DNA of 64,000 bases from a bacterium. Its GTDB lineage: Bacteria; UBA8248. Shown in pieces: positions 7,441 to 31,410 of this stretch. The notes below the pieces were generated by a model that was not told the DNA's origin, did not search any database, and worked only from the letters and a program-made list of their open reading frames with translations. Within the stretch, counting starts at the first letter, position 1. Each line of letters opens with the position of its first letter. The position numbers were made by a program, and so were the translations under genes. The stretch is taken from assembly GCA_965242545.1 (NCBI GenBank), contig OZ251456.1:21146-85145 (forward strand). Direction: 5' to 3'.

Positions 7441-8148
7441 GATCGGGGTGGGGAGGATGACCAGCGAGGTTCCGTAGGGGCGATCTCTCCTCGGGCTTGC
7501 CCCACGGTTCGCGAACCGCCCGTTTGGGTGGGAAGGCGATCTGGGAGAGGAGATGACCGCGATCGGAGCGGCGGGAGGAGCTGACCGATCGGGGCCGGGA
7601 GGATGGCCGCGATCGGGGCGGGGAGGCGATCCGGCCGATCGTGTCTTATTCAGAAGAAATTCCCCATCTTTCGGCGTTTTTCGTTTTGAATCAATCGGTT
7701 ATGCGTTCGCAAAAGCTGCGTGAATTCGCCTGAAAACGCCTTGAATTCGTTTTGAATTTGCTCGATGGTATTTGAATTGAAAGGTTTTCGGTTCGACGGA
7801 AAAAGACGCCCTCTTGATCGCCAATCGGGCGTGTTTCGGCTCGAATGGTACCTTTTTCGCTTCTTTTCGGGATACCGCAAATGCGGGCAAATGCGCGCGC
7901 CGCCGCGTCGCCGCCGACCCACAATCGGGGCGCATGTCCGCGCCCCCTACAATCGGACGCCACCCCACCGTGGGGCGGGCCCGGGAAGGAACCGCCCCTG
8001 CGAAACCCGTCGCGCCGCCGGGCGTCCCGCGAGGACAACCACAGGGGGTTGTCCCTACGGCAATCCGCATCGTCGGCCAATTCACGACGCGCCGCGTCGT
8101 CAACAACCCGCGATCGGGGCGCGTATATGGCGCCCTCGGCGTATTCCC
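7441..8148. repeat. left copy of a ~0.7-kb inverted repeat: 25-nt tandem GATCGGGGCGGGGAGG... units, an AT-rich ~250-bp core, and palindromic modules
   Basis: The reverse complement of 7650-7900 is ~90% identical to 30990-31245. The outer 7585-7650 matches the reverse complement of 31250-31320. The inner palindromic modules 7900-8148 match 30700-30980. Confidence 0.75.
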
Positions 8149-9543
8149 CTAGAACCGCGCGAGGAGGCTCACGCTCCCGCCGACCTCCCTGTTCTCGCCG
8201 GCGGCGGAGAAGTCCACGGAACCCCGAATCTCGTATTTTCCCTCTGCCCAGGCGTGAACGCCCCCGGCCCGCAGCCGAACCCGGGACGCCTCGGCCCTCG
8301 CCTTCAGCCGCTCGCCCGAGACCCTCGCGCTCGTCCCCGCCGAGAAGTCGTGCTCGAAGCCGGCCGCCCCGAACAGACGACCCGCGCCCGTCCGCTTCTC
8401 CACGCTCACCCCCGCCGCGCCCGTGAACATCTCGCCGTCCTCGATCGACACCCGCGAACCCACCGAGTCCGTGAAGTCGTCCAGCGAGACAGAGGAATGA
8501 ACCAGCCGGACGCGCGGCGTGAACGTCAGCCCCCCGGATTCGACCCGGCGCCCCAGCTCGACGCCCGCCGCCCAGCCCGAACCCGACGCCCCCGTCTCCA
8601 GCGCGCCCCGCGCGTCGGAGTCCAGATCCGCCTCATACGCGGTCGCCTCGAGCTGGGCGTCCAGATAGAAGCCCCCGCCAAGCCCCACGGCGGCCGAGAC
8701 GCCCACGCCGCTGCCGCTCACCTCGATCTCCCCGCTCCCGTCCACCTTCGCCGAGCCTCGCCCGTGACGCGCCGAGAAGCCGAGCAGGGCGTTCGCGCCC
8801 AGGCTCACGTCCACGCCCACCCGGACGCCGTAGCGGTCGTATTCATACGTCACGCCCGTCTCGGAGGCGTCCGCCTCCCAGTCGCCGCTCGCGCCCTCCG
8901 CCCGCGCCCAGACGCCGCGCGGCGACCGCGGCGCGCTCATCCGCTCCTCATGCGAGAGCATCCCGTTCATCCTCAGCAGAACCGAGGGCAGCGCCTCGTA
9001 GAGCTCGCAGCGGCGATCCCGCGCCCGGACACAGGAAAACACCGAGAGGTCGAGCGTCGAGAGGTCGAGCGGCTCGTCCTGGTCCTCCACCTCGAAGGTG
9101 GCGCGGTCGGTGATATTCCCCTCCTCGTCCACGAGCTCGACCTTCACGGTCTCGGCGCCCTCGACGGAGCCGCCCACCCGCTCCCGGATCGCCTCGCCCA
9201 CGTCCTCCTCATCGTCCCGCACCCGCACCGTGAGATCCACCGTCTCGCCCTTGATAAGCGGTTCGTCCGGATCGTTGTGCTCGGACCGCTTCACTGTTCC
9301 CGTTTCTCCGACCGTTATTTCCGTGGGGACGCACGACTCAACGGTGCCTATCACCTGGCCGTGAATGATGATGGTCGACCTGGGCTTCTGACGCCGCTGC
9401 CCTTCCGGGCAGTCCTCCTGCGCCCGCGCCTCCCCGGCGGAAAGCGTCAGCGCCGCCAGAAGCGCGGCGAGGAGAGGGATTCCTCGTCTCGCGCCTTTTG
9501 AACCGGGTAAAGAGCGGTCGTCTCCGTACAATCGCTTTCTCAT
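8149..9543 (-). CDS. autotransporter (type Va) outer-membrane protein: signal peptide, short passenger, C-terminal beta-barrel
   Basis: The signal peptide is MRKRL...LLAALLAALTLSAGEARAQE. The C-terminal ~300 aa are homologous to the C-terminus of the giant protein at 24042..30692 (YEALPSVLL..ERMSAPRSPRG...VRLVHSSVSLDDFTD...AGVSVEKRT...). It ends in ...LLARF, an aromatic terminal residue typical of OMPs. Confidence 0.7.
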   Translation of the reverse strand: MRKRLYGDDRSLPGSKGARRGIPLLAALLAALTLSAGEARAQEDCPEGQRRQKPRSTIIIHGQVIGTVESCVPTEITVGETGTVKRSEHNDPDEPLIKGETVDLTVRVRDDEEDVGEAIRERVGGSVEGAETVKVELVDEEGNITDRATFEVEDQDEPLDLSTLDLSVFSCVRARDRRCELYEALPSVLLRMNGMLSHEERMSAPRSPRGVWARAEGASGDWEADASETGVTYEYDRYGVRVGVDVSLGANALLGFSARHGRGSAKVDGSGEIEVSGSGVGVSAAVGLGGGFYLDAQLEATAYEADLDSDARGALETGASGSGWAAGVELGRRVESGGLTFTPRVRLVHSSVSLDDFTDSVGSRVSIEDGEMFTGAAGVSVEKRTGAGRLFGAAGFEHDFSAGTSARVSGERLKARAEASRVRLRAGGVHAWAEGKYEIRGSVDFSAAGENREVGGSVSLLARF

Positions 9544-9731
9544 CTGAATCGTCCTCTCGATGAAGTGAAAGAATCCCCTGTTGCTATCCGCCGCTTCTCG
9601 AATTCAGTCCGCCGGTTGTCGTCGGAAGACGACGAGGCGGAGGCGCGCGTTCGCCGAGAAGGCGGACTTCACGCCTTCGGGAGCGAGGAAGACGCCGCCG
9701 GAGGGCGCCCGCTCCCGGAAAACGGTTTCCT

Positions 9732-9801
9732 GTTGAGCGTTGAGCGTTGAGCGTTGAGCGTTGAGCGTTGAGCGTTGAGCGTTGAGCGTTGAGCGTTGAG
9801 C
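9732..9801. repeat. heptanucleotide tandem repeat (GTTGAGC)x10
   Basis: Perfect 70-nt array ~190 nt upstream of the autotransporter start at 9543. It lies between that gene and the cas9 remnant. Confidence 0.9.
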
Positions 9802-10138
9802 GCCTTTTCCCAGCCTAACCCCTCCCGCCTCGGGGCGCAAGGGGGCGTCGGGGACGCGGGGTTTCCGAACGCGGGAGAGAGGAAGATTCTCCCGCGCGCG
9901 GGCGACGGTTCAGGCATGAAAAGACGGGCCTCCTCGATGAGGGTCGAAAGCTCGCCGGCGGAAAGCGGAACCCGTCTCCGCGGCGAGTGAAAGCGACGAT
10001 TTGGACAAGGTTACGAAAATCCGCCTCGGGCGTCAATCCGCCCCCGGAAAAGCGGGCGGGACGGGGGAGGAACCCCGCGCCGTTCGGCGAACGGAGGCGG
10101 GGGCGTTCCGACGGCGGGGCGCATGTATGCGCCCCGTT

Positions 10139-10336
10139 TCGCGTCTGGCGGCGCGCCAGACGGGCGTCCCGCCTCTTGCGGTTCTTCGGCGTCTTGCTCT
10201 TCCTGTCCACCATCTCCTGAAACGCGCGGACGCCCATGGCTTCGAGGCGCGCCGGGTCGCCCGCCTCGTCCTCCTCGACGAGCGCCCAGCCGATGGAGTT
10301 GGGCCCCAGGTCGAGACCCAGCGTCATGCGAGGCAT
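10139..10336 (-). pseudogene. cas9: cas9 N-terminal remnant (RuvC-I motif plus the start of the arginine-rich bridge helix), truncated after 66 codons
   Basis: MPRMTLGLDLGPNSIGWALVEEDEAGDPARLEAMGVRAFQEMVDRKSKTPKNRKRRDARLARRQTR. The GLDLGxNSIGWA catalytic-Asp motif sits at residue 9, and the R-rich helix GVRxF...RRxARRxTR matches type II-C Cas9 N-termini. Homology stops exactly where the palindrome GGGGCGCATGTATGCGCCCC (10116-10135) begins; the rest of ORF 9815..10336 is repeat-derived nonsense. Confidence 0.55.
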
Positions 10337-10351
10337 ATCGAAAATCTCCCC

Positions 10352-10380
10352 TTGACAATTCGCGCGGGACAGCCTATCAT
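10352..10380 (+). promoter_or_regulatory. strong sigma70-type promoter TTGACA-N17-TATCAT
   Basis: -35 at 10352-10357 and -10 at 10375-10380, divergent from and 16 nt away from the cas9-remnant ATG. Confidence 0.45.
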
Positions 10381-10384
10381 CATA

Positions 10385-10513
10385 GCAGTTTTAGCTGATC
10401 GATGCCTGCTCGCTTTTCTCAACAAGAAGAGAATCTTCGCAGGCAATTCCCCGAACGGGGAAACGACTCCACCCTCGCGATGCCTTCGGGCCCCTCCGGG
10501 GGTGTATTTTTTT
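10385..10513 (+). ncRNA. candidate structured small RNA (~130 nt), possible tracrRNA or crRNA-like relic
   Basis: The predicted transcript starts AGCAGUUUUAGCUGAUCGAUGCCUGC.... It has nested stems (UGCCUGC/GCAGGCA enclosing UUCUC/GAGAA, then UUCCCCGAACGGGGAA) and ends in a GC hairpin (GCCUUCGGGCCCCUCCGGGGG) plus a U7 run at 10507-10513, which is an intrinsic terminator. No ORF is present. Confidence 0.35.
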
Positions 10514-10685
10514 GACCCCCTCCTCCGATTCCCTCCCGGTCAATCTCTCTCCGTCCGCGGGGGGACGCGGATGTGCGTCCCGCCTCTCCCGCGTGGTTGA
10601 AAACGGGCGGCCTTGCGGCCTACACTTGGACGCGCCGCCTCGCGGCTTCCCGGCAATCTATCGGCGACGAAAAGGAGGAGCGGAC

Positions 10686-11192
10686 ATGAGAAAATTCTTC
10701 GGTGGAGCGGCGGCGCTGCTGGCCGCCGCGGCCCTCGCTTTCGGCGCGGGGAGCGCCCTCGCCGCCGAGAGCGGCAGCTTCGAGTTCTACGAGAGCGCCG
10801 TCCACGACTATTCGACCATGAAGCACGCGGACGCGGACGTCACCGTCGGGCCCCTGCATGGAACGGCCACCATCGTCAAGAGCAGCGGCGGCCCCTTCAG
10901 GGAGGGCGCGAACTTCGGCGCGACGTGCCTCGTCTACGCGCGGAAGACGAAGAAGGGCGTCCACCTCGAGGCGCCCTGCTCGTTCACCGACGCGGCGGGC
11001 GACAAGCTCTGGCTGATCGCCCGAAGGAGCATGGGCGACATCCAGGTCGGCGGCGGGGGGCGGGGCGTCCAGCGCATCGTGGGCGGCACAGGCAAATACG
11101 CCGGGGTGACCGGAAACTGCCCCTACCGGACGGACTACCTGCCGGACAAGTGGCTCGTCTCCAAATCGACCTGCAGCTGGAGCAGGCCGTGA
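10686..11192 (+). CDS. secreted small Cys-containing protein, tandem paralog 1
   Basis: Signal peptide MRKFFGGAAALLAAAALAFGAGSALAAE. Four conserved Cys (ATCLVYARKT...APCSFTD...NCPYR...STCSW). SD GGAGGAG upstream. Confidence 0.6.
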   Translation: MRKFFGGAAALLAAAALAFGAGSALAAESGSFEFYESAVHDYSTMKHADADVTVGPLHGTATIVKSSGGPFREGANFGATCLVYARKTKKGVHLEAPCSFTDAAGDKLWLIARRSMGDIQVGGGGRGVQRIVGGTGKYAGVTGNCPYRTDYLPDKWLVSKSTCSWSRP

Positions 11193-11722
11193 TCGCGCGC
11201 GGAGCGAAGCGGAAGGCGGGGAAACCGCCCGGCGCGCTCCCGGCCGCCCTGGCGGTCGCCGCGGGCCTCGCCCTCGCGGCGGGAGCCGCCCTCGCCGCCG
11301 AAAGCGGGAGCTTCGAGCTCCACGAAACCTACGCTCCCGACCTGGCGACCATGAAGCACGCGGACGCCGAGATCACCGCGGGCTCCCTGCGCGGAGCGGC
11401 CGCCATCCTCGAAAGCGGCGGCGGCCCCTTCAGGGAGGGCGCGAACTTCGGCGCGGCGTGCCTCGTCTACGCGCGGAAGACGGAAAAGGGCGTCCGCCTC
11501 GAGGCGCCCTGCGCGCTCACCGACGCCTCGGGCGACAGGCTCTGGCTGCTGGTCGAAAAGCACGAGGGCGGCGTCCGGAACAACGGCGGGCGGGGCGTTC
11601 AGCGCATCGCGGGCGGCACCGGCAAATACGCCGGGGCGCGCGGAGAATGCGCCTATCGGTCGGAAACCCTGCCGAACGGACGCCTCGTCGTCCAATCGAC
11701 CTGCAGCTGGCGCAGGCCGTAA
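11189..11722 (+). CDS. secreted small Cys-containing protein, tandem paralog 2
   Basis: ~70% identical to paralog 1 (AACLVYARKTEKGVRLEAPCALTD...ECAYRSETLPNGRLVVQSTCSW). The GTG start overlaps the paralog-1 stop (GTGA). Confidence 0.55.
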   Translation: MIARGAKRKAGKPPGALPAALAVAAGLALAAGAALAAESGSFELHETYAPDLATMKHADAEITAGSLRGAAAILESGGGPFREGANFGAACLVYARKTEKGVRLEAPCALTDASGDRLWLLVEKHEGGVRNNGGRGVQRIAGGTGKYAGARGECAYRSETLPNGRLVVQSTCSWRRP

Positions 11723-22658: not shown

Positions 22659-23138
22659 ATGACGGACTACGAGAAGCTCAACCTTGTCATCGCCTTTCTC
22701 GCGCTGATCGCCTCCTACGGCGGTCTGGCGCTGCTCTACTACGGCATCCGCCAGATGGATCGGGGGAGCGCGCGGCGGGCGGCGGAGTCGAAGCGCCAGC
22801 ACGAGGAGACGATGACCGCGCTCGCCGAGGAGCGGGAGGAGGCCCGGAGCCGGCACGAGGAGGCGATGCGGAAGATCGCCGAGGATCAGGAGGCGTCGCG
22901 GAAGCGGCACGAGGAGGCGATGGCCGCGCTCGCCGAGGAGCGGGAAGCCTCCCGGAAGCGGCATGACGAGGTGATGGCCGAATCGGAGAAGCGGCACGAG
23001 GAGGCCATGCGCAAGCACGACGAGGCCATGCGGAAGCACGACGAGGGGGCGGAGGAATCCAAACGCCGGCACGAGGAGAGCATGGCCGCGCTCACGGAGC
23101 TCATCAAGCGGACGGGAAACCCGCAGAAGCCCTCGTAG
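22659..23138 (+). CDS. small membrane-anchored coiled-coil protein with RHEEAM heptad-like repeats
   Basis: An N-terminal TM helix (LVIAFLALIASYGGLALLYY) followed by ~7 degenerate copies of (K/R)RHEEAM(R/A). Confidence 0.45.
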   Translation: MTDYEKLNLVIAFLALIASYGGLALLYYGIRQMDRGSARRAAESKRQHEETMTALAEEREEARSRHEEAMRKIAEDQEASRKRHEEAMAALAEEREASRKRHDEVMAESEKRHEEAMRKHDEAMRKHDEGAEESKRRHEESMAALTELIKRTGNPQKPS

Positions 23139-23760: not shown

Positions 23761-23923
23761 TTGCGCGGGGGTTGAACTTCGCCAACTCTTTTTGTTACAA
23801 TGGCGGTCATCATCGGTTTTGACGCGGGACTCGAACGAAACGGGAATCGACCGCTTACAAAGGGGGCAGCGCACATGAGCATGTTCAGCTTGTCCGCGCC
23901 TTGGGATTTGGGGCATACTGGCG

Positions 23924-24023
23924 CCGACTCACCGACTCACCGACTCACCGACTCACCGACTCACCGACTCACCGACTCACCGACTCACCGACTCACCGAC
24001 TCACCGACTCACCGACTCACCGA
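23924..24023. repeat. octanucleotide tandem repeat (CCGACTCA)x12.5
   Basis: Perfect 100-nt array immediately 5-prime of the giant autotransporter gene's ATG at 24042. It lies within the TTG-initiated ORF 23901. Confidence 0.9.
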
Positions 24024-24041
24024 CATGAGAAGGGGCGCGCG

Positions 24042-27000
24042 ATGAGAACGCCGGACGGCGCGGGACGCAACTATGCGTCCCCTACAAAATCGTCGCCGCC
24101 CTGTTTCCGTAGGGGGCGCGGACAACCACGGGGGGTTGTCCCTACGGATATAAAACCGGCATGGGGGCGGCTGGCGGGGCTTCTCGCCGGCTTGGCGCTG
24201 GCGGGGCTGCTGCTGGCGCCGGGGGAGGCGCGGGCGCAAGCCCTTCTATGCGGGAACTCGAACAACGTCCGCTTGGACTGCCCGAATCGGGATTATCCCG
24301 ACGGCATCGTCTATGGCATCGCGGGCGACAGCAGCAATATCAGCCACGGCATCCCCCAGACGCTCAACCTCCTGGGCCACAGTTCCGGGCCGATCACGCT
24401 CACGGCCGGCGCCCGGGGGGTCGCCTTCGGCGCGCGAGCCAGCGGAGGGGCAGGCCTCACGTTGAACATCGGCGGCGCGACGGGCGGGACCGCCCACGTC
24501 GTCAGATTCGTCCAGGGGACGAACTCGGTCTCCGGCATCGACCGGAACAACGGCATCTATGTTTGGCGTACGGCCAACAACACCGGCGCGAGCACAACGC
24601 TGAACGTGAAAGCCGGTGTGACCATCGGCACGATGGCCACGCCGATGAAGCAGCACGGCATCTTCCTCCGCCCGCACGCCGACCGCCCCTCCGCTGGCCG
24701 GGGCAGCGCCGGCCTCACCCTCACCAGCGCGGCGACCATCCATGCCGCCCGGCAGGGCATTCGGATAGTCCGGCAGACCGGGGGCACCAACGACGCGACC
24801 ACCGTCACCAACACCGGCGCCATCCACTCGGGCGTCGGCAACGCCGCCGCCACCGGCAGCTACGTCGACCGGCCGCACGGCATCTACGCGCTGCATGGGG
24901 GGACGCAGAGGACCGGCTCGCTGACCGTCACCAACTCGGGCGACATCACGGTGGGGGGCGCCTACACCGGCATCCTGATGAACTACTGGGGCGCCGGCGC
25001 CCTGAGCCTCGACAACCGCGGGGACATCGCCGCGGCGACGGGGCAGACGGCGAAGCAGGGCATCCAGTTCAACTACAAGTACTGGGACAACCAGAGCGCC
25101 CAGGCCATCACGCTCACGAACTCCGGCGACATCACGGCGTCCGAGTTCGGCATCCGGCTCACGAAGCTCTCGGGCGGCGCGGTCGAGCTCACGAACAGCG
25201 GCGCCATCACGGTGACGGGCGACGCGGCGCAACACGCGGGGCACGCCATCTATCTGGCGGAGGGCGTCACCTTCGGCGAGGGCAGAACCTACGCCGCCAA
25301 CGGCGGCGCCCTCACGGTCGACAACAGCGGTGTCCTCAGCTCGAAGAACCACGCCCTCTACGTCTACCTGGCCACGGCGGACGACGACGTCGAGCTCGAG
25401 AACAGCGGCGACGTCGTCTCGGAGGAGGGGGACGGCATCCGGATCGAGCGGGTCGTCGAGGGCGACGTCGCGGTCGAGAACAGCGGGAGCGTCTCGGGGA
25501 AGGGCCACGGCATTTACGTGGGCCAGGCGGCGCGGATCGACTTCGAGCAGTCGGGGTCGGGGACGATCAGGGGCCGGACGGGGGTCTATCTCGGTGTCGC
25601 GAAGGAGAGCGCGTCGGGCGACTCGCGCAGCACGGACAGCGGCGGGGATCACATCCCCGCGATCGACGTGACCTGGTCGGGCGGGAGCGTGGCGCGGGGG
25701 CCGGCGACGACGGGCGCCCGCTTCACGGCGACCACCTGGCTGGAGACGTCCGTCGCCGACCGGGAGGCGACGGTGGTGAAGTCGGTGGAGGATTCGCTGC
25801 GCTGGGGGGCGGCGGCGGGTCTGGAGGCGCGCGTCCTGTCCTGGCGGGCGGTGATGGAGCAGGTGGCGGCGGGCGACGATCCGGGCGTGATAGCGAACGC
25901 GGCGGCGCAGACGACGCTGCTGGCGACGAGCGGGGCCGGTTCGCGCCGGGCGACCATCCTGGCGCAGGTCCGGGCGATGCTGGGGAACGATGACCTCTCG
26001 GTGGGGACGGATCTCCTCACCGCCATCGACTCGACGGCGACGAGCGTGAGCGACCTGAGCGACGCGGAGATCGCGACCTATCTGACCCAGGACGCCCCGG
26101 ACATCCGGATCATTCTGCGGAACATCCTGCGTTACGGCCTCTCGGCCGCCGAGAAGGCGGTTCTGGCGGCGGTCGTGGCGGGGGACGGCACGGCGCTCAC
26201 CACCGCGCTGGCCGTCACGACGCCGGCCGCCTTCTCCTCCGCCTACAAGACGGCGGTGACCGGGCTGCTGTCCCGCTACAACCTGGACGACGTCAGCGTC
26301 AGCATGACGGGCGGCGAGATCGCCTCGCGCGGCGACGGCATCCGGGCCTATTACGCGACGGCGAACGACAGCAACGGGAGCGTGGAGATCACCATCGGCG
26401 CGAACGCGGCCGTGGAGGGAGACGTCCACGGGATTCACGTTTCGGGCGGCGGGGTGAACGCCTCCAGCGTGAAGCAGCAGCGCGTCACCGTGAACGGGAG
26501 GGTGACGGGCGGGACGGGGGCGGGCGTTCACCTGGTGGGCGGGGGGACGGTGACGGTGGGCGCGGGCGGGCGCGTGGGCGCGACCTCGGGCACGGCCATC
26601 GAGACCTCGGACGGCGGCGATCTGACGGCGGCCATCTCCGGGCGGGTGGAGGGGGACATCCGGGCGGCGGGGACGCTGACGCTCACCTCGGCGGCGGGGA
26701 GCGTGATCACGGGGACGGTTCACGACCCCTCGGGTTCGCTGTCGGTGGCGGGGAGCATCGGGCGGATCGTCTATACGAGCGGGGGGACGGTGACGGTGGC
26801 GGCGGCGGGCCGGCTCACGGGGGTGTCGGGCGAGGCGGTTCGCAGCGACTCAGGCGATTTGAGCGTGACCATCGCCGGGCGGGCGACGGGCGACGTTGAG
26901 GCGGGGGGCAGCGGGAACCTGACCCTGAGCCTCACCGGGAGCGGGCGGCTGGACGGCGACGCCGAGGCGGGGGGGACGCTGACGCTGACGGCGGCGGCGG

Positions 27001-30000
27001 GGACGGTGATCACGGGGACGGTTCACGACCCTTCGAGCGCGTTCACGACGGTGTCGGGGAGCATCGGGCGGATCGTCTATACGAGCGGGGGGACGGTGAC
27101 GGTGGCCGCGGCGGGCCGGCTCACGGGGGCGTCGGGCGAGGCGGTTCGCAGCGACGCGGGCAACCTGAGCGTGACCATCGCCGGGCGGGCGACGGGCGAC
27201 GTTGAGGCGGGGGGCAGCGGGAACCTGACCCTGAGCCTCACCGGGAGCGGGCGGCTGGACGGCGACGCCGAGGCGGGGGGGACGCTGACGCTGACGGCGG
27301 CGGCGGGAACGGTGATCACGGGGACGGTTCACGACCCTTCGAGCGCGTTCTCCACGGTGTCGGGGAGCATCGGGCGGATTCTCTACACGAACGGCGGGAC
27401 GGTGGCGGTGGCCGCGGCGGGCGCTTTGACGGGGGTTTCGGGCGAGGCGGTTCGCAGCGACGCGGGCAACCTGAACGTGGACGTCTCGGGCCGGGCGGGG
27501 GGCGACGTCATCGCCAACGGCGGGGGCGATCTGGACCTGGACGTGCTGGGTTCGGGGCGGGTCGAGGGTGACGTCAAGACCTCGGGCGGGGGCGACCTGG
27601 ACGTCTCCCTGGCCGGCACCGGGCGGATTGACGGCGACGTGCGCGCCCAGGGCGGGGGCGACCTGACGCTCGCCTCGGCGGCGAATACCGTCATCACGGG
27701 CACGGCCTACGACCCGACGGGCGCGCTGTCGGTGGCGGGGAGCGTCGGACGGATTCTCTATACGAACGGCGGGGACGTGACGGTCGCATCGGGGGGCGCC
27801 CTGACGGGCATCGATGGCGTGGCCGTCCGCAGCGCCGCGGGGAACCTGGACGCCGACGTCGCCGGGCGCGCGGGAGGCGACGTCATCGCCAACGGCGGGG
27901 GCGATCTGGACGTGGACGTCTCGGGTACGGTCGCGGGCGACGTTCTGGCGAACGGCGGCGGCGACCTGACGGCGGACCTCACCGGGACCGGGCGGGTGGA
28001 AGGCGATATCCGGGCCTCGGGCGGGGGGACGCTGACGCTGACGGCGGCGGCGGGGACGGTCATCACGGGGACGGTTTACAGTCCCGCGAGTCCGTTCACG
28101 GTGTCGGGGAGCATCGGGCGGATTGTTTATACGAACGGCGGGACGGCGACGGTGGCCGCGGCGGGCGCCCTGACGGGGGTCTCGGGCGAGGCGGTTCGCA
28201 GCGAGGCGGGGGACTTGAGCGTGACCGTCGCCGGGCGCGCGGGAGGCGCCATCCTGGCGAACGGCGGGGGCGACCTGACGACGGACGTCTCGGGGACGGT
28301 CGAGGGCGACGTTATCGCCTCGGGCGGGGGCGACGTGGAGGTGGACGTCACGGCCGCCGGGCGGATCGAGGGAGACGTTCGCGCCGAGGGCGGCGGGATG
28401 CTGACGCTGACGGCGGCGGCGGGGAGCGTCATCACGGGGACGGTCTACGGCCGCCCCGCGGGCGCGTTCACGGTGGAGGGCAGCATTGGACGGCTGGTCT
28501 ACGCGAGCGGGGGCGAGGTGACGGTCGCCGAGGGCGGCGTCCTGACGGGGGTGGATACCGGGGACGGCATGGAGGTGATTCGGAGCGAGGCGGGGGATTT
28601 GAGCGTCACGGTGGCCGGGCGGATCGGGGGCGGCATCCGCTCCGCGGGCGGCCTGGACGTCACGATAACGAGCGCGGCGCCGGGCGACCTCCGCGCGGGC
28701 GGCGACATGACGGCGGATATATCCGGGACGGTCGAGGGCGACCTGGACGCCGGCGGCGATTTGACGGCGACGATCACCGGGGAAGTCGAGGGCGACCTCG
28801 CCGCCGGGGGCGACATGACGGCGGAGATTTCGGGAACGGTCGAGGGGAGCGTCCGCGCGGGCGGGGCCGTGACGGCGGAGCTCTCCGGGCGGATCGAGGG
28901 CGACCTGGACGCCGGCGGGGCGCTGGCGCTGACGGCGACGTCGGGGAGCGTCATCGCGGGCACGCTTCGCGGCCCCGGGGGCGCGTTCACGGTGAGGGGG
29001 AGCATCGGGCGGATCCTTTACCGGGGGGCGGGGACGGTGACCGTGCCCGAGGGCGGCGTTCTGACGGGCGTGGATACCGGGGACGGCATGGAGGTGATTC
29101 GGGGCGAGGCGGGGGACTTGAGCGTGGTGGTGGCCGGGACGGTGGGGGGCGGCATCCGCTCCGCGGGCGGCCTGGACGTCACGATAACGAGCATGGTGCC
29201 GGGCGACGTTCGCGCGGGCGGCGACGTGACGGCGGACGTCTCCGGGACGCTGACCGGCGACCTGGACGCCGGGGGCGACATGACGGCGGATATCACCGGG
29301 ACGCTGACGGGCGACGTGGTCGCCGGGGGTGATTTGACGGCGGATATTTCGGGGACGGTTGACGGGAGCGTCCGCTCCGGGGGCGACCTCACGGCGGTGA
29401 TCACCGGGATGGTGACGGGCGACGTGGAGGGACCGGGCGCGGGCGATCACACCGTGACGGTCTCGGCGGGGGCGGTGGTGACGGGAACGGTTCACCTGGC
29501 GGCCTCCACCGTGCGGGTGGACGGGACGGTGGGCGGGGTGCGCTTCCGGCGGGGCGGAACCCTCACCATCGGGCCGAACGGGCGGATACTGGCGGGCGAA
29601 GGGGTGGCGATACGCAACGACCGGGGCGCGCTGACGGTGACGATAGAGGCGGCCCCGGGCGAGCGGCCCGAGGAGAGCGTCGCCCGGGTGGAGGGGACGG
29701 TGGTGGACCCGGGCGGGAACGAGCGGGCGCGGACGCTGACCCTCCTCTCGACGGACGGGCAGACGGCCGAGCTGAGCCTGGACCTGGAGGGGCGGATCAG
29801 GAGCGGCCTGCCCCCGCGCGCGAAGGTGTATGAGGCGCTGCCCTCGGTTCTGCTGGGCATGAGCCGCCCGCTCTCCTACGGGGAGCGGCTGAGCGCGCCG
29901 CGCTCGCCCCGGGGCGCCTGGGCGCGGGTCGAGGGCGCGAGCGCCAGCTGGAAGGCGGTCTCCTCCGCCTCGGACGCGGAATACGACATGAAGCGCCACG

Positions 30001-30692
30001 GCGTCCGCGCGGGCGTGGACCTGCGCGCGGGGGCGGACTTCCTGCTCGGCTTCTCGGTTCATCACGTTCGGGGCTCGGCGAACATGGGCGCGGACGACGA
30101 GGGCGGGGAGCTCGAGGCGCGGGGCAGCGGGCTGGGGCTTCACGCGGCGTGGGCCTTCGGCGGGGGCTTCTACGCGGCGGGGCAGTTCGAGGCGACCTCC
30201 TACGAGGCGGACATGGAGTCGGACCGGCGGGGGGAGCTGGAGACGGGCGCCCGCGCCCTGGGCCTGACGGTCGGGGCGGAGCTGGGGCGCCGCGTCGCCT
30301 CCGGGGGGGTGACCATCGCCCCGCGCGTCCGGCTGGTTCACGCCTCGGTCTCGATGGACGACTTCACCGACGAGGCGGGCTCCGAGGTCTCGGTCAAGGA
30401 CGCCGCCAGCTTCACGGGCGCGGCGGGCGTGAGCGTGGAGAAGCGCACCCGCGCCGGGCGCGCGTTCGTCTCGGCGGACTTCGAGCGGGAGTTCATCGAG
30501 GAGACCCGGGTGAAGCTCGACCGCGACGCCCTGAAGGCCAAGGCGTCGGAGAGCCGGCTTCGCCTGCGCGCGGGCGGCCTCCACGCCTGGGGCGGGGGCA
30601 GATACGCCGTGCGCGGCGCCCTGGACTTCTCCGCCGCCGGCGATGAAAGCTACGAGGTCGGCGGCAGCCTCGCCTTCCGCGTGAGGTTCTAG
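24042..30692 (+). CDS. giant autotransporter adhesin (~2,216 aa) with a repetitive passenger domain and a C-terminal beta-barrel
   Basis: Signal peptide ...WGRLAGLLAGLALAGLLLAPGEARA-QA. Passenger domain of Gly/Thr/Val-rich beta-helix-like repeats, including ~101-aa modules repeated near-identically. The C-terminal 300 aa are homologous to the 8149..9543 protein and end in ...FRVRF. Start codon uncertain: ATG 24042 reads through a palindromic repeat module. Confidence 0.7.
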   Translation: MRTPDGAGRNYASPTKSSPPCFRRGRGQPRGVVPTDIKPAWGRLAGLLAGLALAGLLLAPGEARAQALLCGNSNNVRLDCPNRDYPDGIVYGIAGDSSNISHGIPQTLNLLGHSSGPITLTAGARGVAFGARASGGAGLTLNIGGATGGTAHVVRFVQGTNSVSGIDRNNGIYVWRTANNTGASTTLNVKAGVTIGTMATPMKQHGIFLRPHADRPSAGRGSAGLTLTSAATIHAARQGIRIVRQTGGTNDATTVTNTGAIHSGVGNAAATGSYVDRPHGIYALHGGTQRTGSLTVTNSGDITVGGAYTGILMNYWGAGALSLDNRGDIAAATGQTAKQGIQFNYKYWDNQSAQAITLTNSGDITASEFGIRLTKLSGGAVELTNSGAITVTGDAAQHAGHAIYLAEGVTFGEGRTYAANGGALTVDNSGVLSSKNHALYVYLATADDDVELENSGDVVSEEGDGIRIERVVEGDVAVENSGSVSGKGHGIYVGQAARIDFEQSGSGTIRGRTGVYLGVAKESASGDSRSTDSGGDHIPAIDVTWSGGSVARGPATTGARFTATTWLETSVADREATVVKSVEDSLRWGAAAGLEARVLSWRAVMEQVAAGDDPGVIANAAAQTTLLATSGAGSRRATILAQVRAMLGNDDLSVGTDLLTAIDSTATSVSDLSDAEIATYLTQDAPDIRIILRNILRYGLSAAEKAVLAAVVAGDGTALTTALAVTTPAAFSSAYKTAVTGLLSRYNLDDVSVSMTGGEIASRGDGIRAYYATANDSNGSVEITIGANAAVEGDVHGIHVSGGGVNASSVKQQRVTVNGRVTGGTGAGVHLVGGGTVTVGAGGRVGATSGTAIETSDGGDLTAAISGRVEGDIRAAGTLTLTSAAGSVITGTVHDPSGSLSVAGSIGRIVYTSGGTVTVAAAGRLTGVSGEAVRSDSGDLSVTIAGRATGDVEAGGSGNLTLSLTGSGRLDGDAEAGGTLTLTAAAGTVITGTVHDPSSAFTTVSGSIGRIVYTSGGTVTVAAAGRLTGASGEAVRSDAGNLSVTIAGRATGDVEAGGSGNLTLSLTGSGRLDGDAEAGGTLTLTAAAGTVITGTVHDPSSAFSTVSGSIGRILYTNGGTVAVAAAGALTGVSGEAVRSDAGNLNVDVSGRAGGDVIANGGGDLDLDVLGSGRVEGDVKTSGGGDLDVSLAGTGRIDGDVRAQGGGDLTLASAANTVITGTAYDPTGALSVAGSVGRILYTNGGDVTVASGGALTGIDGVAVRSAAGNLDADVAGRAGGDVIANGGGDLDVDVSGTVAGDVLANGGGDLTADLTGTGRVEGDIRASGGGTLTLTAAAGTVITGTVYSPASPFTVSGSIGRIVYTNGGTATVAAAGALTGVSGEAVRSEAGDLSVTVAGRAGGAILANGGGDLTTDVSGTVEGDVIASGGGDVEVDVTAAGRIEGDVRAEGGGMLTLTAAAGSVITGTVYGRPAGAFTVEGSIGRLVYASGGEVTVAEGGVLTGVDTGDGMEVIRSEAGDLSVTVAGRIGGGIRSAGGLDVTITSAAPGDLRAGGDMTADISGTVEGDLDAGGDLTATITGEVEGDLAAGGDMTAEISGTVEGSVRAGGAVTAELSGRIEGDLDAGGALALTATSGSVIAGTLRGPGGAFTVRGSIGRILYRGAGTVTVPEGGVLTGVDTGDGMEVIRGEAGDLSVVVAGTVGGGIRSAGGLDVTITSMVPGDVRAGGDVTADVSGTLTGDLDAGGDMTADITGTLTGDVVAGGDLTADISGTVDGSVRSGGDLTAVITGMVTGDVEGPGAGDHTVTVSAGAVVTGTVHLAASTVRVDGTVGGVRFRRGGTLTIGPNGRILAGEGVAIRNDRGALTVTIEAAPGERPEESVARVEGTVVDPGGNERARTLTLLSTDGQTAELSLDLEGRIRSGLPPRAKVYEALPSVLLGMSRPLSYGERLSAPRSPRGAWARVEGASASWKAVSSASDAEYDMKRHGVRAGVDLRAGADFLLGFSVHHVRGSANMGADDEGGELEARGSGLGLHAAWAFGGGFYAAGQFEATSYEADMESDRRGELETGARALGLTVGAELGRRVASGGVTIAPRVRLVHASVSMDDFTDEAGSEVSVKDAASFTGAAGVSVEKRTRAGRAFVSADFEREFIEETRVKLDRDALKAKASESRLRLRAGGLHAWGGGRYAVRGALDFSAAGDESYEVGGSLAFRVRF

Positions 30693-30699
30693 CCGCGGG

Positions 30700-31410
30700 A
30701 CGCGAAAACGCGAATCGACCGGGCGCGGGGAACGGCGAATCACGCCCCCGCGCCCGGTTTTTTGCGCGGCAAAACGGGACGCATATATGCGTCCCCTACG
30801 GGCCGGGGGTGGCGTCATCCAATTGTAGGGGGCGCGGACACCCGCCCCGCACCTGCGCGTCACCTACCCCCTACGCAAAACCGCCGCCCTGTTTCCGTAG
30901 GGGGCGCATATATGCGCCCCGATTGTGGGACGGCGACGACGCGGCGCGGACAACCACGGGGGGTTGTCCCTACGGAAACAAAATTCCCCGCGCGCATTTG
31001 CCCGCATTTGCCGTCGCCCGAAAAGAAGCGAAAAAGGTACCATTCGAGCTGAAACGCGCCCGATTCCCGATCAAAAAGGCGTCTTTTTCCGTCGAACCGA
31101 AAATCTTTCAATTCAAATACAATCGAGCGAATTCAAAACGAATTCAAGGCGTTTTCAGGCGAATTGACGCAGCTTTCAGGAACGCATAACCGCTTGATTC
31201 AAAACGAAAAACGCCGAAACGCGGGGAATTTTATCTGGATAAGACCCGATCGGGCGGATCGCCCTCTCGCCCCGATCCCGGCCATTCTCCCGGCCCCGAT
31301 CTGCCATTCCGCCGCGCCGGGGTCGGCTCATCCTCTCCCCGCTCCGATCGGCCCCTCCACCGGGAGTGGTTTCCCCCTCGCCCCCGAAGCCCGGATCCCG
31401 ACCATCGCTC
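30700..31410. repeat. right copy of the ~0.7-kb inverted repeat (see 7441..8148)
   Basis: 30990-31245 is ~90% identical to the reverse complement of 7650-7900. It includes palindromic modules and 25-nt GATCGGGGC... units. Confidence 0.75.

Follow-up and report, generated by a model that had tools for sequence, protein, structure and literature searches.

A perfect heptanucleotide array upstream of an autotransporter gene is a probable contingency locus in an uncultured high-GC bacterium

The perfect array of ten heptanucleotides upstream of a small autotransporter gene is, in our reading, a hypermutable simple-sequence repeat in the regulatory leader of that gene, i.e. a contingency locus. 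We give this reading a probability of about 0.7, and it draws on comparison with relatives rather than on the locus in the window itself (the window being the whole 64,000 nt stretch of DNA that was analysed). The array as such is real and clearly non-random: Tandem Repeats Finder (TRF) reports it at 9732..9802 (score 142) with a period of 7 and 10.1 copies that match at 100% and have no indels, direct reading of the sequence confirms it, and with 71 nt it is the longest period-7 run in the window, whereas 100 shuffles gave longest runs of 15.5 nt on average and of 19 nt at most. On the plus strand it reads (GTTGAGC)x10.1; in the sense of the autotransporter gene, which is on the minus strand, it runs from 9801 to 9732 as (GCTCAAC)10, and it stops 188 nt (9731..9544) short of the ATG at 9543. 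An earlier note on this DNA had described a perfect (GTTGAGC)x10 repeat, of a unit length that is not a multiple of three, about 190 nt upstream of the start of the small autotransporter gene, and all of this is borne out. Perfect arrays of at least four copies and at least 24 nt occur only twice in the 64 kb, and a tblastn search finds only two autotransporter barrels in the same 64 kb, each with one perfect array directly upstream. Given roughly 55 genes in all, chance alone would very rarely produce this pairing.

The heptamer array, its gene and its leader

The small autotransporter gene (8149..9543, minus strand) encodes a 464 aa protein with a signal peptide, a short passenger and a beta-barrel. 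The barrel matches the Pfam Autotransporter beta-domain PF03797 over residues 211–439 (E=5e-29), the N-terminus has a signal-peptide-like segment in its translation (MRKRLYGDDRSLPGSKGARRGIPLLAALLAALTLSAGEARAQ), and a GC3 of 0.86 supports the ORF being coding. Contingency loci have a perfect repeat long enough to slip, with units of 1–9 nt, in the promoter, the 5' leader or the 5' end of the coding sequence of a surface-protein gene; here 10.1 copies of a 7 nt unit lie 188 nt upstream of the ATG of such a gene.

Alignments and direct reading of the 188 nt leader between array and ATG (9544..9731, minus strand) show a hairpin (GTCGTC-TTCC-GACGAC), a Shine-Dalgarno sequence (GAGAGGA, 9558..9552) and a TGA at 9606..9604 in the frame of the autotransporter. 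Because this stop stands in frame between array and ATG, the array is outside the autotransporter ORF; a frameshift switch within the coding region was rejected on the same stop, and also because the signal peptide starts at the ATG at 9543. With regard to RNA structure, a conserved riboswitch-like fold of the leader is unsupported: its minimum free energy is no lower than that of shuffled sequences (z=-0.31), and in the fold of the leader alignment only 3/48 pairs have compensatory changes and the covariation term is positive. The (GCUCAAC)10 tract itself is predicted to be unpaired in the RNA fold. Rfam searches gave 0 matches at gathering scores in the window and 0 at E<=1 for 9400..10700, and metagenome scans with a 40-nt conserved block of the leader and with the conserved GAGGAG..ATG block gave no match.

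Promoter-like motifs were found only upstream of the array. The nearer one, here called P2-like (9812..9840, minus strand, identified by direct reading), consists of TTGCGC (9840..9835) and TAGGCT (9817..9812) with a 17 nt spacer and ends 10 nt before the array. It aligns with the TTGCGC-17-TATAGT of two more distant relatives (L127 and L128, described below), which ends 8 nt before a (AACTTCCC)n array. The farther one, P1-like (TTGACG-17-TAACCT, 10008..10036, minus strand), lies about 200 nt upstream of the array in a block conserved with L127/L128, where its counterpart is TTGCCG-17-TAGCCT. Three blocks upstream of the array are conserved between the window and L127/L128, namely the P1-like motif, GAGGAG-N12-ATG and the P2-like motif. 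Both promoter-like motifs are weak and score below the threshold of the consensus scan, the consensus of which may not be that of the host; the same scan, with the same proviso, gave no promoter-like site on the minus strand of 9731..9544.

The earlier note had suggested that the array changes either promoter spacing or the length of the untranslated region. The first option falls away, as an array of 70 nt is too long to be the spacer between a -35 and a -10 box (16–18 nt) and all promoter-like hexamer pairs are wholly upstream of it. The second stands: since the promoter-like motifs all precede the array, the array is probably transcribed into the 5' leader, where it would form the 5' part of the mRNA.

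The second perfect array of the window, (CCGACTCA)x12.6 at 23924..24024 on the plus strand (TRF score 202), lies upstream of a giant autotransporter-like ORF of 2176 codons (24162..30692, plus strand). The C-terminal barrel of this ORF (29817..30689) was found by tblastn and is 59% identical to the barrel of the small autotransporter (E=2.6e-98). A sigma-70-like promoter called by the scan, TTGAAC-18-TACAAT at 23772..23801, is located 122 nt upstream of the (CCGACTCA)x12.6 array.

Several further features of the two autotransporter loci were seen on the way. The second array is about 137 nt upstream of the signal peptide of the giant ORF. The ATG at 24161 and the run of five G behind it (24161..24168 together) are shifted by one base relative to the frame of the signal peptide; if the run had four G, the start would read MGRLAGLLAGLALAGLLLAPGEARAQA. 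The run of five G could be an assembly error, the mark of a pseudogene or a second switch, and the only in-frame upstream ATG (24042) would put a REP palindrome within the coding sequence. Just upstream of this big locus is a 159-aa ORF (22659..23138, plus strand) that is rich in His, Glu and Ala and built of 54-nt (18-residue) repeats, with a 151-aa counterpart adjoining an autotransporter gene in two sister-species contigs (L129/L130). Finally, an element of about 300 nt is found downstream of both autotransporter genes (7599..7899 and 30969..31277), in the same orientation relative to each gene, and also downstream of the ortholog of the small gene in three sister-species contigs (L123, L125 and L126).

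Related cassettes and copy-number change

We searched a collection of 5.8 billion sequences for the proteins closest to the small autotransporter, and the contigs used for comparison bear labels from L001 to L135. The closest protein is 77% identical and belongs to a sister species, in which the gene is 86–88% identical in DNA; the ortholog and its cluster mates were found on five contigs from five samples (L001, L123–L126). All five contigs begin inside a GCTCAAC array, which ends 181–182 nt before the ATG, and therefore both the unit and its position have been kept between the two species. The copy numbers on these contigs (at least 8, 6.6, 6.6, 6.6 and 3 units) are lower bounds only. The sister array may be long or variable enough to stop short-read assembly, and the breaks may also just mean that the array exceeds the k-mer of the assembler. 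Directly after the array, 120 nt (9731..9612) match the sister species at 92.5% identity, a value that drops to 87.7% in the coding sequence and to 69% in the remainder of the leader.

A homologous autotransporter cassette, with 68% identity in the barrel, is present in two circular genomes of 3.03–3.04 Mb (L127 and L128), and its upstream region is homologous to the window from about position 10065 as far as the array. Where the window has the heptamer, these genomes carry a perfect array of another unit, (AACTTCCC)n, one strain having 23 full units and the other 19, between flanks that are nearly fixed (298/300 positions identical before the array and 458/461 after it, in long-read metagenome assemblies). 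The difference between 23 and 19 units supports the whole-unit change expected of a contingency repeat, as seen in a homologous cassette with another unit and not at the locus of the window. In another relative (L002), 12.5 perfect copies of a 13-mer stop 26 nt short of the Shine-Dalgarno sequence and ATG of a gene for a secreted protein, and an autotransporter gene follows. This 13-mer array must be transcribed, because no promoter fits between it and the gene. Four different units occupy the equivalent place in four related cassettes. The earlier note had called the position of the heptamer typical of contingency loci that control surface proteins, and the unit and position shared with the sister species, the five contig breaks, the cassette with 23 versus 19 units and the second array in the window all agree with that view.

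Proposed action of the array and competing explanations

The conserved cassette is ordered as P1-like motif, start of a short ORF, P2-like motif, array, leader of about 190 nt, Shine-Dalgarno sequence and autotransporter gene. In the proposed mechanism, which the comparison of relatives supports at this step, slipped-strand mispairing during replication would add or remove 7-nt units. Transcription would start upstream of the array, most likely at the P2-like motif a few nt before it or at P1 about 200 nt before it, so that the 5' end of the mRNA leader would carry the array as an unstructured (GCUCAAC)n tract that is poor in G. By analogy with known systems, and with precedent as its only basis, the length of the leader might then set the amount of autotransporter, which would be a graded 'volume' control rather than an on/off frameshift, of the kind known from Haemophilus influenzae (hmw1A/hmw2A) and Moraxella catarrhalis (uspA2).

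The opa genes of Neisseria, with their CTCTT units, are switched by a frameshift repeat in the coding region. The heptanucleotide repeat of neuO in E. coli K1 is of the same coding-region type (PMC13001214; PMC9659370). The array described here shares with both a unit length not divisible by three and, as proposed, slippage as the mutational mechanism, but lies outside the autotransporter ORF. By analogy, the locus appears closest to hmw1A/hmw2A, i.e. to expression control by a 5'-leader repeat of a type V secreted surface protein. In nontypeable H. influenzae these paralogous genes each have their own array of 9–28 repeats, and in hmw1A the -10 box of the second promoter (P2) overlaps the first ATCTTTC repeat, so that the active transcript, made from P2, has the repeats in its 5' UTR, and additional repeats lower expression (PMC8262952; PMC2424069). 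The likeness includes a 7-nt unit, a similar range of copies, a location upstream of a type V secreted surface protein and one array per paralog, and it may extend to a place in the 5' UTR just after the -10 box of an upstream promoter, which here would be the sub-threshold TTGCGC-17-TAGGCT motif that stops 10 nt short of the array. The differences are that hmw1A/hmw2A encode two-partner-secretion adhesins of a human pathogen, whereas the gene here is a classical autotransporter (type Va) of an uncultured high-GC bacterium; that no second promoter was found right after the array (9731..9544 scanned); and that the unit sequence is unrelated and the paralogous cassettes here differ in both unit and unit length.

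Two other systems invite comparison. In uspA2 of M. catarrhalis, AGAT repeats in the 5' UTR vary from 6 to 23 copies by strain and tune expression, with no frameshift that would turn it off (PMC4679880, citing Attia and Hansen 2006). As here, by prediction, the repeat is in the 5' untranslated leader of a surface protein of the autotransporter family, but uspA2 has a tetranucleotide unit, a trimeric autotransporter and a peak of expression at a particular copy number. Marine Beggiatoaceae have TAACTGA heptamer repeats just upstream of start codons, with a proposed post-transcriptional role (PMC4679880). These are likewise heptameric direct repeats before start codons in a non-pathogen, but comprise one unit at 169 sites per genome, usually in few copies, whereas the cassettes here have a private unit each, in 10–24 perfect copies, and are associated with autotransporter genes.

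The array could also act through translation. A possible upstream ORF (9669..9935, minus strand, counted from its GAGGAG at 9935..9930) runs from an ATG at 9917 through the array to a stop at 9669, and if it were translated, the copy number modulo three would set where translation stops and, through this, translation or transcript survival downstream. We consider this unlikely. Its start, GAGGAG-N12-ATG-CNT-GAA-CCG, ranks with the most strongly conserved sequences that precede the arrays in the window and L127/L128, all four arrays are open in every sense frame, and in L002 an ATG lies 4 nt before the array and opens an ORF that at the present copy number stops in an ATGA overlap with the main start. 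The peptide is however not conserved beyond about 10 codons, the stops vary (window -128, -43 and -63; L127/L128 -116, -154 or read-through) with no common coupling geometry, the ATG at 9917 would be outside the mRNA if P2 is the active promoter, and open frames with a nearby ATG are not rare in DNA of 68% GC. Slightly less probable still is that the array regulates nothing and is a neutral by-product of a slippage-prone sequence in a cassette that is rich in REP elements and prone to recombination. In many bacterial genomes no other class of long repeat is as common as heptamers (earlier surveys, summarised in PMC4679880), GCTCAAC arrays are found in at least 120 species genomes of many phyla in varied contexts, and the cassette is surrounded by REP-like palindromes and has changed its genomic context. 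A neutral origin fits poorly with the two long arrays of the 64 kb preceding its only two autotransporter genes, with the four units at one equivalent place in four related cassettes, and with a unit and position kept perfectly between species of which the genes differ by about 13%.

It is more doubtful again, and in our view very unlikely, that the array is a row of spaced binding sites for a DNA- or RNA-binding protein, be it a cold-shock-domain protein on each heptamer or a transcription factor, with copy number setting occupancy. One CspB molecule per heptamer direct repeat is possible (cited in PMC4679880), and the array RNA is single-stranded in prediction, but no candidate regulator gene adjoins the cassette, and a single sequence-specific binder is disfavoured because the related cassettes use unrelated units of 7, 8 and 13 nt.

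There is also a speculative variant of the reading as a contingency locus, in which the arrays would be tunable loading platforms on the nascent mRNA, their length setting premature Rho termination or 30S capture in the leader; we regard it as an unlikely extension. C-rich, G-poor unstructured RNA is the composition of Rho-utilisation sites and of ribosome standby sites. In the mRNA sense the G content is 14% for GCUCAAC, 0% for AACUUCCC and 12.5% for CCGACUCA, compared with 34% G in the genome. Stretches of 70 nt with G <=16% and C >=40% are confined to the 8-mer array on the plus strand, and form about ten regions, the heptamer among them, on the minus strand. If the variant were true, each autotransporter gene would have a private, heritable but reversible attenuator, and the recurrence of the same heptamer in at least 120 species could be a convergent solution to one need.

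Genomic setting, distribution and significance

The minus-strand ORF starting at 10336 matches PDB Cas9 structures (E=2.6e-10) over query residues 5–70 only, and is a cas9 remnant (10137..10336, minus strand) that holds just the RuvC-I motif and the start of the arginine-rich helix. It is 83% identical to the intact Cas9 of L129 over residues 1–54, with nothing beyond. From 22091 down to 10137 the window is syntenic with sister-species contigs at 82–91% identity, and in four of these, L129 (18604..21017), L130, L131 and L135, the small secreted-protein gene is followed by an intact cas9, which spans at least 985 aa wherever the locus contains all of it; L132–L134 are without cas9 at this place. 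The homology to the sister cas9 contigs stops at 10137, adjoining the REP-like palindrome GGGGCGCATGTATGCGCCCC (10116..10135), which was found by family pattern matches, and the sister species has its orthologous small autotransporter in a different neighbourhood. Since four sister-species contigs have an intact cas9 here and the autotransporter ortholog is elsewhere in that species, the array and its gene do stand where the body of cas9 was, in a REP-flanked cassette that has moved. This is where the earlier note had placed the array, and its claim holds: only the first ~200 nt of cas9 are left, and four sister contigs are intact.

The REP family pattern gives 18 strand-specific matches in the window, equal to 9 palindromic sites, compared with 0.04 expected. 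Sites of one REP-like family (GGGRCGCANNTATGCGYCCC) are at 7927, 10116, 10562, 22258, 23223, 23702, 24062, 30776 and 30901, and those of another (GGACAACCNCGGGGGGTTGTCC) at 8017, 22443, 23559, 24104 and 30932; both families cluster round both autotransporter cassettes and are common to the sister species. Beside the cas9 remnant, the plus strand of 10352..10513 has a strong promoter-like TTGACA-17-TATCAT, followed by a 36-nt sequence resembling a CRISPR repeat or anti-repeat (10388..10423) and an intrinsic-terminator-like hairpin with a T run, and looks like an orphan tracrRNA gene. This segment has no Rfam match, there is no CRISPR array in the window, and the 36-nt repeat-like sequence occurs there only once. 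The heptamer array was also considered as a CRISPR array or a relative of CRISPR repeats, and both ideas were rejected: its 7-nt units stand head to tail without spacers, CRISPR repeats measure about 24–48 nt, and the 36-nt repeat-like sequence has its single occurrence elsewhere. A small secreted-protein gene is duplicated in tandem in the window (10686..11192 and about 11200..11722, plus strand, 83% DNA identity), and the sister species has a single copy of 166 aa.

The GCTCAAC unit is not confined to this lineage. One genome per species was scanned for three tandem units, which gave at least 120 loci (L003–L122), and among the matches listed are members of the Verrucomicrobiota, Kiritimatiellia, Planctomycetota, Comamonadaceae, Sulfurovum, Bacteroidales, Acidobacteriota, Synergistaceae and others, with arrays of 3–15 perfect units. 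Contexts among these matches are varied: in Synergistaceae, strong -10 boxes are immediately followed by the array (TTGACA-17-TACAAT-GC-array is one case), one array lies upstream of a TupA-like ATP-grasp gene, a DUF1559 prepilin-like gene of a planctomycete begins with an array in its reading frame, and in Comamonadaceae and Verrucomicrobiota the array is one arm of inverted heptamer arrays. Other repeats in the listed GCTCAAC loci are almost all heptamers, in agreement with earlier surveys (PMC4679880). A location after a -10 box was rejected as a general rule for (GCTCAAC)n, being found in 4/28 sense and 4/27 antisense cases compared with a background of 6% among the matches listed; there, arrays beside a -10 box are confined to this lineage and to some loci of Synergistaceae and Planctomycetaceae. 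We also observed that arrays neighbouring GCTCAAC arrays are often of one-base variants of the unit, that a single Ottowia MAG has GCTCAAC arrays on at least five contigs, and that one goat-rumen Synergistaceae MAG has near-identical promoter-leader modules (TATAAT-GC-array) with 5 and 7 GCTCAAC units (L026 3307..3341 and L073 2365..2413, in reverse-complement coordinates).

With regard to the host, the GC content of the window is 60–75%, proteins with 96% identity to its ATP synthase beta subunit come from MAGs that NCBI labels as Nitrospinae/Nitrospinota bacterium, and the close relatives all come from metagenomes. Switching of surface proteins by repeats is textbook biology for a handful of host-adapted pathogens, and a known repeat design is now seen in an uncultured, high-GC lineage known from metagenomes only. 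What is unusual is that several autotransporter genes of this lineage have a private unit each, at the equivalent place in a shared upstream cassette. The autotransporter cassette where cas9 was is also a concrete case of the loss of CRISPR immunity at a REP-flanked junction. If the mechanism is true, the lineage would offer a natural allelic series, with units of 7, 8 and 13 nt, for the action of repeats in 5' leaders, and if the arrays tune expression, stochastic variation of the cell surface would be used well outside the pathogens, perhaps against phages or grazers.
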